Positions 97 through 7,633 of a stretch of 64,000 nucleotides of DNA are shown here, piece by piece. The DNA is from Thalassobaculaceae bacterium (GTDB lineage Bacteria; Pseudomonadota; Alphaproteobacteria; Thalassobaculales; Thalassobaculaceae). The stretch is from the NCBI GenBank assembly GCA_965228875.1, contig OZ245843.1, forward strand, positions 850,616-914,615. Direction: 5' to 3'. Made by a program: the position numbers and the translations under genes. Every line of letters starts with the position of its first letter. Within the stretch, counting starts at the first letter, position 1. The notes under the pieces are model-generated. The model made no database searches, had not been told where the DNA came from, and saw nothing but the letters and a program-made list of their open reading frames with translations.

Positions 97-101
97 AACC
101 A

Positions 102-151
102 CCCGCTCCGGACCCGGACCGCATGACCAAGCGGCTCCAGGTCCGGGCGGG
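102..151 (+). terminator. Imperfect GC-rich stem-loop after the first gene
   Basis: CCCGCTCCGGACC ... GGTCCGGGCGGG; no U-tract. Confidence 0.3.
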
Positions 152-550
152 AGAAGAACCTTCGCCGGCACGCCGATATTGCGCGGCTGGCGCCATCATC
201 GTCTGATGAAGCCGGTCTCCAACGCCCTCACATCTCTCGACGCCTCGTGACGGATTGCCGGCAAGCGGCCTTGGGTCAAGGCCAGCTCATTGCCGGCGCC
301 ACGGACGGCTTGATGTGTCCGGAACTCCGTTAAGACGTTCTGCCAACGATGCGACGGTGCCTACAACCCAGCGAACCGGTCGGATTGGTTGAAGTCGCCA
401 TGACTGACGGGAGTGGCTGCGTGCGGAGGCGACTGCCCAGCATCAGGTCGCCAACAGTCTGGTTGGGCGGCGGCTCTGGGACAGTGTTTTGAGCGGCTTC
501 TCTATCGTCACCCGGGACACTGAGCTGCTTGGCGATCACCTGATTGCAGT

Positions 551-567
551 ATGTTATAACGTAACGT
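551..567 (+). promoter_or_regulatory. Zur box
   Basis: ATGTTATAACGTAACGT resembles the GTTAT-N3-ATAAC Zur palindrome; AT-rich patch directly upstream of a zinc-uptake operon. Confidence 0.7.
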
Positions 568-597
568 ATGAATGGGTACCTTGATTGGAGTCAGAAC

Positions 598-1000
598 GTG
601 AATAAGCGGGGGGCGACGCATGCAGACGGAGATGTTGGCGGTTCTTTGCCGGCAGGACCGTCCGTTGACCGCATTCAAGGTTCAGGCGGGGTTATGGGGT
701 TCCAATCCGAGGTTCGCGTCACCAACGATTTATCGAGCGCGAACCGTGCTGGTGGAGCAGGGGCGGGTACATCGTCTCGAGGCCCTGAGTGCTGGTATAG
801 CGGGCCAAGGCTTGGCGCATCAGCGCGCAGTAATCCTGGCCAACAGCAACGACTGCGGCAGCGTCGAGGAAGGCACTGCTCCCCGTTCGCTGATGGGCCA
901 CTCGCACACCTCAAGTAGGTTCGGGACTACGCCGGCGCGCCATGTGGTCGACGTCCAAGGCCACTGTGCCGCCTGCGATGGCGGGGAGGTGTCAGGATGA
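598..1000 (+). pseudogene. zur: Zur/Fur-family regulator, frameshifted and degenerate
   Basis: RBS GGAG (587-590) and GTG at 598 give VNKRG, out of frame with MQTEMLAVL at 620 across a G6 run (608-613). PTIYRA..L.E.G.VHRLE and the C-terminal HCAAC are retained, but the first CxxC reads NSNDC and NAFIAC reads SAGIAG. Confidence 0.7.
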
Positions 1001-1128
1001 GGGGGATGCACTCCATGGGGCGCCTTCTTCTCCTCGGCGCGGGGCCGCGTTTGATCGGTGCCGCACTGATCGTGGCGGCGCTTTGGGCAGGCTTCTTCTG
1101 GGCGACCTCGACGCCGGGGGCGCTATGA
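997..1128 (+). CDS. Small 43-aa hydrophobic membrane peptide (MRGMHSMGRLLLLGAGPRLIGAALIVAALWAGFFWATSTPGAL)
   Basis: ATGA overlaps with the zur stop (997-1000) and with the ATPase start (1125-1128); one hydrophobic helix; below the ORF-track cutoff. Confidence 0.7.
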   Translation: MRGMHSMGRLLLLGAGPRLIGAALIVAALWAGFFWATSTPGAL

Positions 1129-1868
1129 CCGCGGTTGTCGCCTTCCAGGATCTGACGCTTGGATACGACCGGTTGCCGGCGGTTCACCGACTGGATACCG
1201 AGATCGCGCAAGGTAGCCTGACGGCCGTCGTCGGCCCTAATGGGGCCGGTAAATCCACGCTGTTGAAAGGCGTGGTCGGTACCCTGTCGCCATTGGAGGG
1301 GCGGGTGGCGTTCGGCGCGCTTCGGCAGGAGGACATTGCATATCTGCCGCAACAGTCGGAGATCGATCAGTCCTTTCCGCTCTCCGTCGTGGATCTTGTC
1401 GCCATGGGGCTCTGGCGGGAGATCGGTCCCTTCGGATGGTTCGGCAAGACGCACCGTGCCCGTGTCGAGGAGGCGATCGCCGCCGTCGGACTGACCGGGC
1501 TCGAGACCCGCGTGATCGGATCTCTGTCGGGTGGTCAGATGCAACGGGCGCTCTTCGCCCGCCTCCTCTTGCAGGATGCGCGGTTGGTCCTGCTCGATGA
1601 GCCCTTCACCGCGATCGACGCCCGCACCATGGCGGATCTTCTTGGGGTGATCCGCCGGTGGCACGGTGAAGGACGGACGGTTCTGGCCGTCCTGCATGAT
1701 CATGACATTGTTCGGGAGCAGTTTCCGCGCACGCTGATGCTGGCGCGGGAACTCGTCGCCCACGGTCCCACCGACAATGTTCTCACGGCGGAGAACCAGT
1801 TTCGCGCTCGCCAGATGTGCGAAGCCTGTGCCGGACCGCCGCATGTCTGCGGCCGGAGTGCGGCATGA
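1125..1868 (+). CDS. Zn/Mn ABC transporter ATP-binding protein (ZnuC/AztA-like)
   Basis: GPNGAGKS Walker A, LSGGQ signature, LLDEP; start reassigned to ATG 1125. Confidence 0.93.
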   Translation: MTAVVAFQDLTLGYDRLPAVHRLDTEIAQGSLTAVVGPNGAGKSTLLKGVVGTLSPLEGRVAFGALRQEDIAYLPQQSEIDQSFPLSVVDLVAMGLWREIGPFGWFGKTHRARVEEAIAAVGLTGLETRVIGSLSGGQMQRALFARLLLQDARLVLLDEPFTAIDARTMADLLGVIRRWHGEGRTVLAVLHDHDIVREQFPRTLMLARELVAHGPTDNVLTAENQFRARQMCEACAGPPHVCGRSAA

Positions 1869-2734
1869 TCTGGGACGTCCTGATTGCGCCGTTCGCGGAT
1901 TTTGGCTTCATGCGTCGCGCCCTGTTCGGCTGCGTCGCGGTTTCTGTGGGCGCCACGCCGGTGGGCGTTTTCCTGATGCTGCGGCGGATGAGCCTGACCG
2001 GCGACGCGATGGCCCACGCGATCCTGCCTGGCGCGGCTGTGGGGTATCTGGTTTCTGGGTTGTCGCTCGGGGCCATGACCGTTGGCGGGCTTGTCGCCGG
2101 CATGGCGGTCGCGTTGCTGTCGGGGCTGGTCACGCGCGTTACCGCCCTGCGCGAGGACGCGAGCCTCGCGGCGTTCTACCTGATCTCTTTGGCTCTCGGG
2201 GTCCTGATCGTCTCGACCCGTGGCAGCAATGTCGACCTGATGCATGTGCTCTTCGGCACCGTGCTCGCCCTCGACGACGCCGCGCTGATCTTGCTGTGCT
2301 CGATCGCGAGCATCACGGTTCTCGTTCTCGCGACCATGTTCCGGCCGCTGGTCCTGGAATGCGCCGACCCGCAGTTTCTACGCTCGGTCAGCGGGTTGAG
2401 CGCGGTGACCCACTTCACCTTTCTGACTCTCGTGGTGCTGAACCTGGTCGGCGGGTTCCATGCATTGGGCACGCTCATGGCGGTCGGCATCATGATCCTG
2501 CCGGCGGCCGGTGCGCGCTTTTGGGCCGCCGGCATCGGCGGTCTGATCGTCGCCTCCGGAGCCATCGCCGTGCTGTCCAGCGTGATCGGGCTGCTGCTGT
2601 CGTTCCACCTCAGCCTGCCGTCGGGGCCGGCGATCATCCTCGTGGCCGGGCTCGCCTACGGGATGTCGTTGGTGTTCGGGCCGGTGGGCGGTCTCGTCGC
2701 GCGGATGCAGCCGCGTTCCCGCCTAGAACTGTGA
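1865..2734 (+). CDS. Zn/Mn ABC transporter permease (ZnuB/AztB-like, ABC-3)
   Basis: RRMSLTGDAMAHAILPG motif, multiple TM helices, ATGA overlap with the ATPase. Confidence 0.93.
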   Translation: MIWDVLIAPFADFGFMRRALFGCVAVSVGATPVGVFLMLRRMSLTGDAMAHAILPGAAVGYLVSGLSLGAMTVGGLVAGMAVALLSGLVTRVTALREDASLAAFYLISLALGVLIVSTRGSNVDLMHVLFGTVLALDDAALILLCSIASITVLVLATMFRPLVLECADPQFLRSVSGLSAVTHFTFLTLVVLNLVGGFHALGTLMAVGIMILPAAGARFWAAGIGGLIVASGAIAVLSSVIGLLLSFHLSLPSGPAIILVAGLAYGMSLVFGPVGGLVARMQPRSRLEL

Positions 2735-2745
2735 AAGGACTGCCG

Positions 2746-3753
2746 ATGACGACCCGCAGAACCCTCCTTACATCCGCCGCGGCATTGGTCACCCTGTCTC
2801 TTGCCGGACCCGCGTCCGCCCAGTCGAGCGAGCCGGTCCCGGTCGTCGCGACGTTCTCCATCCTTGGCGACATGGTGGCGCGCATCGGCGGCGAGCATGT
2901 CTCGGTCACCACGCTCGTCGATCCCGATGGGGACGCGCATGTCTATCAACCGACCCCGGCAGATGCCCGGTCGGTCCGCGAAGCCAAGGTTCTGTTTGTG
3001 AACGGGCTCGAGTTCGAAGGCTGGATCGACCGTCTCGTGGACGCCTCTGGCTTCAGTGGCACCCGAGTGGTGGCGACCCAGGGGATCGAGCCGATCGCGT
3101 TCGACGACCATGACGATCACCACGGCCATGGCAAAGACGAGCACGATAAGGACGACCATGGCCATGCGCACGACGGCAAGCATGGCGATGACAAGCACGA
3201 CGCCCATGCCGGTCATGACCATGGTGCGTTCGATCCGCATGCCTGGCAGAGCCTTGGAAATGCGGTGACGTATGCCGAGAACATCATGATCGCTCTGGCC
3301 CAGGCCGATCCGGACAATGCGGCCGCGTTCTACCGGAACCGCGTCGCCTATGTGGCCGAGATCAAAGCGTTGGATGCGGAGGTTCGAGCCCAGATCGACC
3401 AACTGCCAGAGAACAAGCGCACCGTCGTGACCTCACACGACGCGTTCCAGTATTTCGGTCGCGACTACGGACTGGTCTTTCTCGCGCCTCAGGGACTCAG
3501 CACGGAGGCCGAGGCATCGGCGAAGGATGTCGCCCATCTGATCGAGCAGATGCGCAAGGAAGGCATTTCGGCGGTCTTCGTCGAAAACATCACTGACGCG
3601 CGGCTGCTCGAACAGATTGCCCGCGAGACCGGTGCCACGATCGGCGGAACCCTCTATCCGGGAGCCCTTTCCGGTCCGGACGGCCCGGCAGCCACTTATC
3701 TCGACATGATGCGCCACAACGCGACGACGCTCGCGACGGCGCTTGGGTCGTAA
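2746..3753 (+). CDS. Zinc ABC substrate-binding protein (cluster A-I) with His/Asp-rich loop
   Basis: Signal peptide, VVATFSIL, DAHVY, DPHAW, TSHDAF, long His/Asp-rich insert; RBS AAGGA. Confidence 0.93.
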   Translation: MTTRRTLLTSAAALVTLSLAGPASAQSSEPVPVVATFSILGDMVARIGGEHVSVTTLVDPDGDAHVYQPTPADARSVREAKVLFVNGLEFEGWIDRLVDASGFSGTRVVATQGIEPIAFDDHDDHHGHGKDEHDKDDHGHAHDGKHGDDKHDAHAGHDHGAFDPHAWQSLGNAVTYAENIMIALAQADPDNAAAFYRNRVAYVAEIKALDAEVRAQIDQLPENKRTVVTSHDAFQYFGRDYGLVFLAPQGLSTEAEASAKDVAHLIEQMRKEGISAVFVENITDARLLEQIARETGATIGGTLYPGALSGPDGPAATYLDMMRHNATTLATALGS

Positions 3754-3828
3754 CGCGCCGCCAGCGCCGCGGCTGACGACACCTTCCGCATACCACCAAC
3801 AGAGCACTGTAACGTCAGGGGACATTCT

Positions 3829-5394
3829 ATGTTGAGAAACCGGCTCATGATTCCTGGGGCATTGGCCGTCCTGGTGGGCGCCTCGGTCCAGGCGACGCCT
3901 GCCGTGGCGCAAAGCCTGGAGGAGCGACTGAACGCGCTGGAGCAGGACTATGTGAAGATCCTGGTCCGGGAGCGTGAGAAGCAGGAAGAGATAGAGCAAC
4001 TCCGAGAGGAGCTTGAGCGTCTACGCCGCGGCGACCGGACGTCTCCCGATGCATCACACGGACATGGACATGGGCATGGGCACGCCCACGAAGGGGACAA
4101 GAAGCAGGGCAGCTCGACCGCTTCCCAAGCCTCGACCCAGGAAGGCCACGACCACGCCCATGACCACGGCGGCCACGGTCATCACGACGATCATTCGAAC
4201 GGGTACAGCTCCGTCCTGCTCGAGACGGAGGACGTGATCGTGTACGCGCCGGCCATCGGCGTCGACCTCTCCCTCTATCAGGACGATGGCGACACAGCCC
4301 TGGAAAGCCGGCTGGAGGAGCTCGCGGGTTTCGGCGGCGGCCATTCGCATGGGGAGGGCGAGGAAGGTCACGGCCTGGAGGATGGCTTCAACCTTCGTCA
4401 CGCGGAAGTCGGTCTCGCTGTGGGCCTGAAGGGCATCGCCCGAGCCCAGGTGTTGTTCAACGGCTCAGAGGATGGCGTCGAGACCGAGGAGGCCTTCGTC
4501 GTATCAGAGCCCATCGGCGACGTCCTCACCCTGAAGGCCGGTCTCTTTCGCAGCGGCTTCGGATTCTTCAACGCCAAACACTCGCCCGAGTGGGATTTCG
4601 TCAACCAGCCGCTGGCGAACTTCGCTCTCCTGGGTGACCACGGATTGGATGGGCTTGGCGGACAGGCGGTATTTTCACCGGGCAACGGCCGGGTGACGTT
4701 CGGCGTGGAAGCGTTCAACGGTGATGGCGAGACACTGTTCTCGCGCGAGGACGGCATTGAGGACCAGGACAACCCCGGCGTGATCGTCGGCTGGATCAAG
4801 GGAGATGCTTTCCGGACTTCCAGCAGCACGCTTCGCCTTGGGTTTGCCGGAGGATACGGAATCCACCAGCAGGAACTTGAAGCGCATGAGCATGAAGAAG
4901 AAGAGGAGGAACACGAGCACGAACACGAGGAGGAAGAGGAAGAAGAGCGCTTCGGTGACGGTCGTGCCTGGTTCATTTCTCCCGGGTTCGAGTTCGTGAG
5001 CCAAGGCAGTGGCCCTCGCCTCGAGGGGGATTGGACCGTCCGCGGCGAGTACATCTATCGCTTCAAAGATCTCGATATTGTCGACGAGTCGGAGACCTAC
5101 GAAGCGAAACAGGACGGCTACTATCTGGAGGCCTTGTATGGCGTGACGCCGAGCTTCCAGATCGGTGCCCGGTTCGATCAGATTGGCTTGGTCAACTCGA
5201 TCACGGACGAGGACGAGAAAACCAGCTACGACAGTAGTGAGCAGATCTCGCTTGTTGGATCCTACTGGTTCAACGACTGGGCTCGCCTGAGCGGACAGGT
5301 GGGTTTCGGCGACTACGCGTTCGAGGACGGCAACGACGAGGTTATGCACGGTTCCCTGCGGTTCACCATGCAACTTGGCCCTCACTTCCACTGA
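3829..5394 (+). CDS. Putative zinc-regulated outer-membrane beta-barrel protein with His- and His/Glu-rich tracts
   Basis: Signal peptide, N-terminal coiled coil, His-rich tracts, alternating beta-strand pattern, C-terminus SLRFTMQLGPHFH; last gene of the Zn operon. Confidence 0.75.
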   Translation: MLRNRLMIPGALAVLVGASVQATPAVAQSLEERLNALEQDYVKILVREREKQEEIEQLREELERLRRGDRTSPDASHGHGHGHGHAHEGDKKQGSSTASQASTQEGHDHAHDHGGHGHHDDHSNGYSSVLLETEDVIVYAPAIGVDLSLYQDDGDTALESRLEELAGFGGGHSHGEGEEGHGLEDGFNLRHAEVGLAVGLKGIARAQVLFNGSEDGVETEEAFVVSEPIGDVLTLKAGLFRSGFGFFNAKHSPEWDFVNQPLANFALLGDHGLDGLGGQAVFSPGNGRVTFGVEAFNGDGETLFSREDGIEDQDNPGVIVGWIKGDAFRTSSSTLRLGFAGGYGIHQQELEAHEHEEEEEEHEHEHEEEEEEERFGDGRAWFISPGFEFVSQGSGPRLEGDWTVRGEYIYRFKDLDIVDESETYEAKQDGYYLEALYGVTPSFQIGARFDQIGLVNSITDEDEKTSYDSSEQISLVGSYWFNDWARLSGQVGFGDYAFEDGNDEVMHGSLRFTMQLGPHFH

Positions 5395-5422
5395 CGAAGC
5401 CGACCCTTTGATGGTCAACGAA

Positions 5423-5451
5423 GGCACCGCCGCGGCTGATGCGGCGGTGCC
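5423..5451. terminator. Stem-loop between convergent operons
   Basis: Perfect 11-bp stem GGCACCGCCGC-N7-GCGGCGGTGCC. Confidence 0.6.
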
Positions 5452-5594
5452 GCAATCTGGCTGACGGGACCAACAATCACGTGCCGGGACCATTCACCTC
5501 GAACGGCGAACAGGGAAGTATGGACCGCGAACAGCGAACTCGTTGACCTGCAGCAGGAAGTTTCAGCTGCCACGCTCTTCTCAAGCCCTCGCTC

Positions 5595-6995
5595 TCAGCT
5601 AACCTGCCGCGGCGCCTGGAAACTGGCAGTTCCCGCTTTCTCCAGCACCTTCGACGCTCTCAGGCATAGATCCTCGCGCCAAGGAGCCGCGATCACTTGT
5701 ACGCCAATCGGGAGGCCGGCAGAGGCAACGGGAACCGCGCAGACCGGCAAACCGATGGCCGAAATCGGTTGAGTGAACAGGCCGATATTCGGGCGCAGCA
5801 AGACCTCCCGACCATGGATCATCACGGTCCGCTGGCCGATCTCCGGGGCCGGGAAGGGGGTCGCCGGGGCGATCAGCACGTCGACCTCGCGGAACACCTT
5901 GGCGAACTGATCGCGATACCAGCGGCGGACCTGCTGCGCGCGGGCGTACCAGGCGCCCGGCAGCATCGCGCCCGCGAGGAAACGGTCGCGGGTGTCAGGA
6001 TCGAAGTCGTCGAGCCGGGCGCGCAGGTTCTTCATGTGCAGTGCCGCGCTCTCTACATTGGTGATCAGAAACGCGGCGGCCCGACCCTCGGCCACACCGG
6101 TCACCTCGACCGGTCCACGGGCATCGAGGGCCGCGGCGACGGACTGGACGGCGGCATCCGCCTCCGGCATACCCTCGGGCGAGAAATAGCCGCCCAGGGT
6201 GGCGATCCTCAGGCCGTCGATCCCGGCATCCAGGGAGCCGGTGACCGATTCGACCGGACGGTCGGCGCAGGCAGGATCCCCGTCAGCCGGGCCCTGCATG
6301 ACATCGTAGGTCACGGCCAGGTCGCGAACCGACCGGGCGAGCGGGCCGAGATGGTCGAGGCTGTCGCAGAACGGAAAGCTGCCGGCCCGGCTCAGTCGGC
6401 CATAGGTCGGTTTCAGGCCGAAAACGCCGCAGAACGAGGCCGGGACCCGGATCGATCCGTTGGTGTCGGAGCCCAGGGCGAAGGCGTCGAGGCCGGCCGC
6501 CGTCGCCGAGCCGCTGCCCGAGGACGAACCGCCGGCCATACGGGTCGTGTCGTGCGGGTTGCGGCAGGTGTCGTCATTCGCGTTCTCGCCGGTGAAGTCG
6601 TAGGCATATTCACCCATGTTCAGGCCGCCGATCAGCACCGCTCCGGCGGCGGTGAGTCGGCGGATCAACACCGCATCGGTCTCCGCCGGCGGCAGGTCGC
6701 GGTTGATCTTCGAGCCAGCCCGGGTCGGCAGGCCCTCGATGTCGAACAGGTTCTTCACCGCGAACGGGACGCCGGCGAGCAGACCGAGCGGCCTTCCGGC
6801 CGCGCGGTCGGCGTCGATCCCGCGCGCCTGGGTCAGGGCCCGGTCGGCCGTGACATCGGTGAAGGCGTTGACCGTCGGATTGGTCGCGGAGACCCGGTCG
6901 AGGGCCGCACTCGTGACAGCCTCGGCGGTGACCGTGCCGGCAGCGATCGCCTCGGCGACCCGCCAGGCGGGGGCGAAGGGGTCAGGTCCGCTCAT
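5595..6995 (-). CDS. atzE: AtzE-family amidase (1-carboxybiuret hydrolase-like)
   Basis: Amidase signature AVKNLFD, GGSSSGS, GSDTNGSIR; YAYDFTGEN and LRPNIGLFTQPIS are typical of AtzE. Confidence 0.85.
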   Translation of the reverse strand: MSGPDPFAPAWRVAEAIAAGTVTAEAVTSAALDRVSATNPTVNAFTDVTADRALTQARGIDADRAAGRPLGLLAGVPFAVKNLFDIEGLPTRAGSKINRDLPPAETDAVLIRRLTAAGAVLIGGLNMGEYAYDFTGENANDDTCRNPHDTTRMAGGSSSGSGSATAAGLDAFALGSDTNGSIRVPASFCGVFGLKPTYGRLSRAGSFPFCDSLDHLGPLARSVRDLAVTYDVMQGPADGDPACADRPVESVTGSLDAGIDGLRIATLGGYFSPEGMPEADAAVQSVAAALDARGPVEVTGVAEGRAAAFLITNVESAALHMKNLRARLDDFDPDTRDRFLAGAMLPGAWYARAQQVRRWYRDQFAKVFREVDVLIAPATPFPAPEIGQRTVMIHGREVLLRPNIGLFTQPISAIGLPVCAVPVASAGLPIGVQVIAAPWREDLCLRASKVLEKAGTASFQAPRQVS

Positions 6996-7633
6996 GCGCC
7001 GTCACTCTCGGTCTCGGCGTCGCAAGCGTAGGTGGGATCGAACACGGCCGCCAGGGCCAGCGTACCCTCGGGCACCGGTGCGGCTTCCAGCAGGGCCACC
7101 ATGTCCCGGACGATGGTGAGGAAGGGCTTCACCGACTCGATCCGTTGCTCGTCGAGGTCGAGGTCCAGCATCGGCGCCGTCGCGCGGATGTAGGCGTCGG
7201 CGTCGAATGCGGAAGCCGCCATGCAGTTCTCCTGATCTGTCCGGGTGGGTCGTTCTGGCGGAGGCAGCAGGCTCACATGGGCCGCCACCACCCGCCAGCC
7301 CTCGGGCATGCGCACCCAAGTCTGGCTCTGGCGTCCCATGCGGCCGTTGGATCTCCGCCGATACTCAGTGAAGGCGATGGCATGGTCGGTGCCATAGGAG
7401 GTGATCGCCGTTCGGGTCAGATCCCGAGCGATGTCGCTGACGTCCCGGGCGCTGCGGTAGGAAGAGATCTCGGCGAAGCCGTACAGCGCCTCCTGCGGGC
7501 CGTAGCGGATGGTCTCGGGCGCGTTCAGGAACAGCTCGTTCAGCACCGCGATGTCGTTCTCCATCAACGCGGTCTCATAGCGTCGGAACGCGGCCTCGAC
7601 CTCGGCCCGGACCTCGGGGATATTGATCTCCAT
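6992..7633 (-). CDS. In-frame AtzH/HpxZ-like (DUF3225) plus AtzG-like (DUF4089) fusion; internal start at 7222
   Basis: N-terminal part MEINIPEVRAEV...GRQSQTWVRMPEGWRVVAAHVS; C-terminal part begins MAASAFDADAYI after an AGGAG RBS and ends LAAVFDP. Confidence 0.75.
   Translation of the reverse strand: MEINIPEVRAEVEAAFRRYETALMENDIAVLNELFLNAPETIRYGPQEALYGFAEISSYRSARDVSDIARDLTRTAITSYGTDHAIAFTEYRRRSNGRMGRQSQTWVRMPEGWRVVAAHVSLLPPPERPTRTDQENCMAASAFDADAYIRATAPMLDLDLDEQRIESVKPFLTIVRDMVALLEAAPVPEGTLALAAVFDPTYACDAETESDGA

Follow-up and report, generated by a model that had tools for sequence, protein, structure and literature searches.

Gene order and the AztABC importer

Close to the start of a 64,000-nucleotide window of the complete genome of a Thalassobaculaceae bacterium (4.96 Mb, 67.8% GC; assembly GCA_965228875.1, contig OZ245843.1, positions 850,616 to 914,615 of the forward strand), a co-oriented set of features was found that consists of a Zur box, a short zur-like open reading frame (ORF), an ORF of 43 amino acids (aa), the importer genes aztA, aztB, and aztC, a gene for a 521-aa predicted outer-membrane porin, and a hairpin. 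A preliminary description of this DNA had proposed a zinc-capture porin system, and the computable parts of that reading (the plug-less barrel of the model, the linkage to importer genes, and the Zur box) turned out as proposed. The window is the whole stretch of DNA that was analysed, and positions below are those of the window unless stated otherwise.

The Zur box (ATGTTATAACGTAACGT, 551-567), a 7-3-7 palindrome with two mismatches, was confirmed in a genome-wide motif scan. It is followed on the plus strand by the 126-aa zur-like ORF of the Fur family (620-1000), the hydrophobic 43-aa ORF (997-1128), aztA for an ABC ATPase (1125-1868), aztB for an ABC-3 permease (1865-2734), aztC for a zinc-binding protein of the ZnuA family that has a signal peptide and a long loop rich in His and Asp (2746-3753), and the porin gene (3829-5394), all at the places given for them in the preliminary description. 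Three junctions are 4-base ATGA overlaps, namely zur-like ORF/43-aa ORF, 43-aa ORF/aztA, and aztA/aztB, where the ATG of aztB overlaps the stop of aztA. Folding of 5385-5600 revealed a GC-rich hairpin with a 12-bp stem (5423-5451), a likely terminator, in the space that separates the porin gene from a convergent amidase gene. As starts and stops overlap, only 75 bp separate aztC from the porin gene, and a strong hairpin follows, the genes would form a single transcript. The hairpin lacks a T run and was missed by the consensus terminator scan, in which terminator-like sites were no commoner than in shuffled sequences; the consensus scan for promoters gave no sigma-70-like site.

The product of aztA was assigned by NF040873 (225.8 bits, above the cut-off of 220) and Pfam ABC_tran. 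The scores of AztB (NF040871, 262.7 bits) and AztC (NCBIfam AztC, 303.6 bits) stayed below the respective cut-offs of 280 and 350, with Pfam matches to ABC-3 (E 1.2e-44) and ZnuA (E 1.5e-87). In comparison with AztC of Paracoccus denitrificans (5kzj), to which it aligned with an E-value of 1.7e-84, the window AztC has a much longer His/Asp-rich loop. The His residues of DPHAW and SHDAF are kept, and near 3655-3680 the protein reads TLYPGALS where P. denitrificans AztC has TLYSDALS. The Asp of the latter motif is presumably the fourth zinc ligand; if so, the window protein would have a three-His site like ZnuA. Because of the match to AztC and the His-rich loop, the binding protein is regarded as zinc-type; in passages of PMC7463823, such a loop in a binding protein of this type is taken to indicate zinc specificity. 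For AztD, the complete genome gave no match to NF038015, in a search whose control matched two of 14 named genomes. Elsewhere in the genome lie a znuA/znuCB locus of the classical kind and one more ZnuA-type system, the third.

Predicted structure of the porin and its family

An AlphaFold (AF2) model of the 521-aa protein, built on 62 sequences, reached a mean pLDDT of 82.9 and a pTM of 0.74. The signal peptide (aa 1-27, 3829-3909), read from the sequence, ends in PAVA and is followed by QS. A confidently modelled helix of coiled-coil character comes next (aa 30-66, 3916-4026, pLDDT 88-95) and is presumed to be a periplasmic stalk. It is joined by a disordered, His-rich linker (aa 74-123, 4048-4197, pLDDT 32-36) to a strongly acidic beta-barrel (about aa 126-516, 4204-5376) with pLDDT mostly above 90, in which 16 strands were counted by eye from the DSSP output. 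Foldseek returned OprP and OprO as top matches (E 5.8e-12), then other porins including DcaP. Structural alignment with VIA-align to OprO and OprP gave a Z of 29.3 and an rmsd of 2.9-3.0 over 318-321 residues, covering the whole barrel, whereas general porins reached at most 24.7, about 4.6 units lower. The predicted barrel is plug-less and superimposable on the 16-strand barrel of OprO/OprP; neither a plugged 22-strand receptor nor a protein without a barrel was seen in the model, the two structural outcomes that would have spoken against the preliminary description. All of the best structural matches are known as 16-strand porins. An oligomer prediction with two copies of the barrel (residues 125-521) scored 0.00 against a mark of 0.42 and is uninformative on a trimer either way.

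On the sequence level, no Pfam family was found for the window protein at E≤0.01, and no NCBIfam match. One relative (P0032) passes PF07396 (Porin_O_P) with 23.3 bits at a cut-off of 20.9, and a second (P0024) matches at E 0.087; judged by these scores, the family sits at the edge of this profile. PF07396 is also assigned to 22% of the members of a look-alike cluster in the Atlas. A profile search of the PDB with the family alignment A1 yielded coiled-coil noise only (E≥0.33), so that the link to OprO/P is structural only.

In a HMMER scan, 769 cluster representatives matched the family at E≤0.001, 152 at E≤1e-10, and 16 at E≤1e-30. A one-genome-per-species scan gave 208 stretches encoding a relative, of which the best 80 were used for locus counts. 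These are distributed over Kiritimatiellia and other PVC bacteria, Thermodesulfobacteriota, Pseudomonadota, Elusimicrobia, Planctomycetes-type lineages, and others. The metagenome scan with the single protein revealed no close relatives with the whole operon, and the scan with alignment A3 five loci at 44-47% identity. One weak match, from Sulfurovum (25.9% identity), was obtained in the plasmid search.

The preliminary description had called for a survey of gene neighbourhoods, and the linkage to znu/azt-type genes proved near-universal among the best 80 loci. ZnuA-family neighbours were called with a profile made from the initial hits. A binding-protein gene of this family adjoins the porin gene in 71 of 80 loci, or 71 of the 76 that have sequence beyond the porin gene; in the other four, the contig ends within 343 bases of it. 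It lies directly downstream on the same strand in 63 loci and directly upstream on the same strand in three, and is adjacent in five more that were missed by the distance rule. Of 330 ORFs that neighbour the porin gene in 39 long loci, the first 150 (from 17 loci) were scanned with Pfam and likewise showed ZnuA, ABC-3, and ABC_tran beside it.

Two further observations were made in these loci. Many PVC-group loci carry a small ORF of about 100-120 aa directly 5' of the porin gene (L007:6446-6772, L009:6536-6853, L010:6505-6798, L011:6451-6813, L014:6501-6848, L016:6466-6792, L019:6519-6821, and L032:6426-6749); that of L011 matches DUF2946 (E 2e-6), the others have no Pfam match. At L017:4545-5551, the binding-protein gene is split into two overlapping ORFs that correspond to the two halves of ZnuA, which may reflect a frameshift or an assembly error.

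As the standard for a TonB-dependent receptor, a Plug domain (PF07715), a 22-strand barrel, and a length of usually more than 600 aa were used. The database copy of the window protein (P0001), which starts at Met7, matched neither Plug nor the receptor barrel PF00593 at E≤1. Residues 1-125 of the model consist of the signal peptide, one helix, and the disordered linker, with no plug, and none of the best 150 family representatives (131-569 aa) is of receptor size. Lacking Plug and PF00593, and with 16 counted strands instead of 22, the protein was rejected as a TonB-dependent receptor. The genome encodes nine Plug-domain receptors and one TonB. The Plug domain nearest to the window, which itself has none, is about 41 kb before its start, and the only TonB_C match of the genome is at 3.42 Mb, 2.5 Mb away, in line with the earlier remarks that the protein has no obvious plug and that no tonB gene is nearby; ExbB and ExbD were not searched for in the genome. 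Among the 150 neighbouring ORFs of the 17 loci, neither TonB, ExbB, ExbD, nor Plug was found at E≤1e-5.

Long loops follow strands 1, 5, 7, and 9 in strand order, and their orientation was assigned by strand counting and by analogy with classical porins. The loop that connects strands 1 and 2 (aa 153-185, 4285-4383) carries the family motif GFG..H.H....H, as read from an alignment of the window protein with the 80 locus sequences (81 in total). The long loop between strands 5 and 6 (aa 242-273, 4552-4647), modelled with a short helix at pLDDT above 90, contains H251 and H271 and would correspond in position to L3, the constriction loop of classical porins. A stretch rich in His and Glu is inserted between strands 9 and 10 (aa 351-373, 4879-4947), and the protein ends in GPHFH (5377-5391), where relatives mostly have G.HGAH.F. 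The preliminary description had listed export, a coiled coil, His-rich tracts, the HEHEEEEEEHEHEHEEEEEEE insert, and the GPHFH end for this protein; all are present, the His tracts lying at 74-123 and the insert exactly at 4885-4947. Its idea of His-rich loops stands in part: the predicted surface loops do carry conserved His, but the longest His tract, with 14 of the 29 His of the whole protein, is the linker at 74-123, which is probably periplasmic and not a surface loop, because it precedes the barrel and lies beside the periplasmic helix.

In the alignment, His251 is present in all 81 sequences, as are W255 and F257 of the same loop. His519 and His521 are found in 80 sequences each, His271 in 79, His181 in 77, His172 and His355 in 75 each (the length of the insert loop varies among relatives), His346 in 70, and His191 in 66; position 179 is His in 76 of the 81 and Glu in the window protein. 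While the long His tracts differ among relatives, the barrel and the His of its loops are kept. By the model, these conserved His would belong partly to surface loops, partly to the constriction-position loop, and partly to the C-terminus on the periplasmic side, a placement that, by analogy with porins, has the look of a cation relay across the pore. The barrel of the window protein contains 80 Asp and Glu and 23 Lys and Arg, and its net charge of -57 makes it the most acidic of the 81, all of which are acidic (median -33, range -57 to -11).

Zinc control and genomic setting of the operon

The 7-3-7 palindrome ATGTTATnnnATAACAT was scored across the whole genome. With at most two mismatches, six sites at five places were found versus 0.37 expected from base composition; with at most three mismatches, 12 sites versus seven expected, which is about the chance rate. 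Apart from the box of the window, sites lie between znuA and znuCB, which are divergent, 5' of a CobW-type gene (COG0523; no mismatch), and 5' of a hisI-like gene that precedes one for a hexapeptide-repeat protein (no mismatch, with an overlapping second site). Classical Zur targets account for three of the five places. The site at genome position 3118020 (two mismatches) was set aside, as it lies in an AT-rich stretch and is probably due to chance. The hisI-like and hexapeptide-repeat genes are probably zinc-sparing paralogues. The two perfect boxes are located at L082:3149-3165 for the COG0523 gene, a second one besides that next to the canonical zur described below, and at L081:3190-3206 for the hisI-like (PRA-CH) gene. 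No Plug-domain receptor was found near any Zur box of the genome when all nine were checked.

The motifs of P. denitrificans Zur, confirmed by gel shift (EMSA), closely resemble the window box according to Table 7 and passages of the text of PMC5387054. What had been described as a Zur-like box is a credible Zur box for this organism, and since the same motif precedes znuA/znuCB, the COG0523 gene, and the hisI-like gene, control of the operon by zinc through Zur appears well supported by inference from these sites. In two related alphaproteobacterial loci, L003 and L090 (perhaps from near-identical organisms), a perfect box is positioned directly 5' of the binding-protein gene, which is followed by the porin gene. 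Here, the box precedes these two genes only (L003:3523-6106 and L090:3772-6355), and no ABC ATPase or permease gene was found on either contig. This layout hints at pore and binding protein as the core pair. The remaining 83 related loci, which come mostly from other phyla with perhaps different Zur motifs, yielded no box.

The product of the zur-like ORF aligns to residues 29-147 of E. coli Zur (4mtd) with an E-value of 5e-9, scores 42 bits with the NCBIfam Zur model at a cut-off of 167, and gave no match to Pfam FUR at E≤0.01. The N-terminal helix is missing from it, as is one of the two Cys of the first CxxC pair, and the third-position GC content of the ORF is 0.69 compared to 0.75-0.87 in the neighbouring genes. 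A single homologue was found (94% identity), also of 126 aa. A canonical zur with both CxxC pairs is present at L085:488-2297 (genome 4907487-4909296, minus strand), with a COG0523 gene directly downstream whose product has a long His-rich tract; the genome thus has a full Zur besides the paralogue of the window. "Zur relic", as the ORF had been called, was a fair guess for a truncated and divergent protein but is only partly right, as the frame is intact; the ORF may equally be a paralogue of the canonical zur found elsewhere in the genome. The 43-aa ORF is preceded by GGAGG and has a third-position GC content of 0.80. It has no Pfam or NCBIfam match and is regarded as a candidate gene.

The module of 5.5 kb is bordered on the left by a metallophosphoesterase gene ending around base 96 and on the right by the amidase gene (5595-6995), convergent with the porin gene. 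Window positions of about 100-5600 gave no DNA match in ten congeners; in several of these, syntenic DNA of about 80% identity begins again with the amidase gene. The module as a whole is somewhat poorer in GC than the genome, and the GC content of the porin gene region is 0.59-0.60 compared to 0.678 for the genome. Because the module is absent from the ten congeners at the DNA level, its acquisition as a unit would fit. No tRNA gene was found in the 7.3 kb searched upstream of the module, and no integrase, mobile-element genes, or flanking repeats were seen around it. In 24 genomes of other families of the class, the porin search gave one weak match.

Beyond the module, the minus strand at 5595-7633 carries the amidase gene and then a gene with AtzH-like and AtzG-like domains, an arrangement that resembles a 1-carboxybiuret hydrolase cluster. 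The amidase region occurs a second time, with 76% identity, at genome positions 4214327-4215868.

Proposed role and alternative explanations

Taken together, sequence and model make it rather probable that the porin is a Zur-repressed, TonB-independent zinc channel of the outer membrane that supplies AztC. As the gene of a predicted plug-less, His-rich pore ends a zinc operon and its family almost always lies beside zinc-type ABC importers, the porin probably provides the step of zinc uptake at the outer membrane that has been missing. When zinc is plentiful, Zur bound to the box at 551-567 would repress one transcript that runs from the zur-like ORF to the porin gene, and under zinc starvation the operon would be expressed. 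The porin would then be exported and inserted into the outer membrane as a plug-less barrel of about 16 strands with no need for TonB. Its acidic barrel and the His of the surface loops, the constriction loop, and the periplasmic C-terminus might attract Zn2+ and pass it inward, while the helical stalk and the His-rich tether in the periplasm may keep it near AztC. The His-rich loop of AztC would take up the zinc for import by AztBA. The porin gene stands at the place of aztD in the gene order of P. denitrificans, and its product may assume part of the chaperone role.

OprP and OprO are substrate-specific, trimeric 16-strand porins that are induced by starvation for their substrate, which parallels the role proposed for the window porin. 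Those of Pseudomonas aeruginosa (2o4v, 4rjw, and 4rjx), the best structural matches of the window porin, are plug-less channels, as is predicted for the window porin, although identity amounts to only 15-16%. The entry title of OprP 2o4v names an arginine ladder for phosphate, whereas the family studied here has conserved His and a strongly acidic barrel. Furthermore, the window porin has an additional helix at the N-terminus as well as His-rich tracts, and its genomic link is to metal ABC importers instead of phosphate genes.

DcaP has an N-terminal periplasmic coiled coil before its 16-strand barrel, a layout like that of the window porin, and its substrates are dicarboxylates and sulbactam. 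The protein of Acinetobacter baumannii (6eus) matched more weakly than OprO/P (Z 23.8, 309 residues) and, unlike the window porin, has neither His-rich tracts nor a link to metal transport.

ZnuD-type receptors carry His-rich surface loops. They are TonB-dependent, with 22 strands and a plug, neither of which is seen in the window porin. PMC2895646 and PMC4176598 describe ZnuD (Neisseria, Acinetobacter) and ZnuK/L/M of Caulobacter as Zur-controlled entry of zinc through the outer membrane, the physiological place that is proposed here for the window porin. AztD of P. denitrificans, the product of the fourth azt gene, passes zinc to AztC via the His-rich loop of the latter, and some AztD homologues have tails rich in His, Asp, and Glu (both from passages of PMC7463823). 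AztD is a soluble beta-propeller, whereas the window porin is a predicted membrane barrel; its gene also lies 3' of aztC, and its His-rich tracts are similar.

No experimental characterization of the porin family was found in full-text literature searches. The preliminary description was right in this respect when it called the protein uncharacterised, but the family already has a database name. The only paper found to use it is PMC9817125, where the name omr is taken from RegPrecise predictions. According to Table 1 of that paper, the omr gene of Vibrio parahaemolyticus, beside znuAII and znuBII, is 1033-fold up under zinc limitation. Vibrio omr shares with our relatives the database name and the order of outer-membrane gene, binding protein, and permease, and is likened by name and order only; a word-index search with A1 added few sequences, none of them from Vibrio. 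Two other papers, on nickel in cable bacteria (PMC11247825) and on Brucella ovis (PMC13664203), are unrelated to the porin family.

Several points weigh against the proposed zinc channel. The clade of the window protein has lost two of the usual His, with Pro at position 253 (His in 77 of 81 sequences) and Ser at position 333 (His in 69 of 81), and the protein ends in FH instead of the usual terminal Phe. The lining of the pore by conserved His rests on strand counting and on the analogy with classical porins. PF07396 does not match P0001 at E≤1. Five of the 76 informative loci show no binding-protein gene beside the porin gene, although 2.5 kb or more of sequence follows it. The porin was found in none of the ten same-genus and 26 other same-family genomes searched, and is thus dispensable in the lineage. 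Finally, ZnuA-family proteins of other phyla may carry Mn or Fe, and the substrate of the family may not be zinc everywhere.

The last point leads to the alternative that holds up best, although we consider it unlikely: a divalent-metal channel that is not specific for zinc (Mn2+, Fe2+, Ni2+, Co2+, or small chelates) and was recruited to a zinc operon. The adjacent binding proteins of other phyla can be assigned to no more than the ZnuA family as a whole, to which carriers of Mn and Fe also belong, genes for NikR and CbiM lie near the porin gene in locus L009, and His, Asp, and Glu ligands bind several transition metals. In the window, however, the porin is paired with an AztC-like protein that carries a His-rich loop, and a Zur box precedes the operon; perfect boxes precede the gene pair in L003 and L090, and database curators predicted zinc regulation for members of the family.

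Improbable, in our view, is a zinc sponge or chaperone similar to AztD or ZinT that is held in the outer membrane by a non-conducting barrel. The 14 His of the disordered linker among 29 in total, the absence of AztD from the genome, and the tails rich in His, Asp, and Glu of AztD homologues would suit such a protein. It is, however, the long His tracts that vary, and the barrel and the His of its loops that are conserved; besides, a 16-strand barrel is large for a mere anchor, and every one of the closest structures is a channel.

The best structural matches, and the score of P0032 above the PF07396 cut-off, would also be accounted for by an ordinary OprO/P-type porin for anions or phosphate, or by a general porin, with no role in metal uptake. 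We regard such a porin as very unlikely in view of the ZnuA-type adjacency in 71 of 80 loci across phyla and of conserved residues that are His. The strongly negative net charge, in the window protein as in the family, is the opposite of what an anion channel needs and argues against one, bearing in mind that a charge count does not place residues. A TonB-dependent receptor, the name given to some relatives in the database, can practically be dismissed: apart from a sub-threshold match of P0032 to the receptor barrel (20.3 bits, cut-off 27), the matches, the strand count, the N-terminal helix and linker, the protein lengths, and the neighbouring ORFs described above all oppose it.

For the zinc channel, a wider and more tentative version may be considered, namely that a family with the OprP fold has exchanged the arginine ladder for a path of His and carboxylates, serves as a passive, TonB-independent, Zur-controlled zinc channel in many phyla, and has in this bacterium replaced AztD in a relay from pore to ABC importer, in which stalk and His-rich tether would hand zinc to AztC directly. 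On the basis of sequence and model, what is new is a substrate-specific porin of the OprO/P fold that appears to be turned to a metal cation, in a widespread, misnamed, and uncharacterised family. The crossing of the outer membrane by zinc is partly known, with TonB-dependent receptors in some bacteria and leakage through general porins assumed for others. If the proposed role is correct, a dedicated, zinc-regulated, and energy-independent channel that accompanies ZnuA-type importers across phyla would fill this gap, and the misleading database name of the family would be corrected. It would also constitute a second case, beside OprP/OprO, of a porin fold tuned to a scarce nutrient, here a cation, and would offer a simple system for the hand-off of a metal from a pore to a binding protein.

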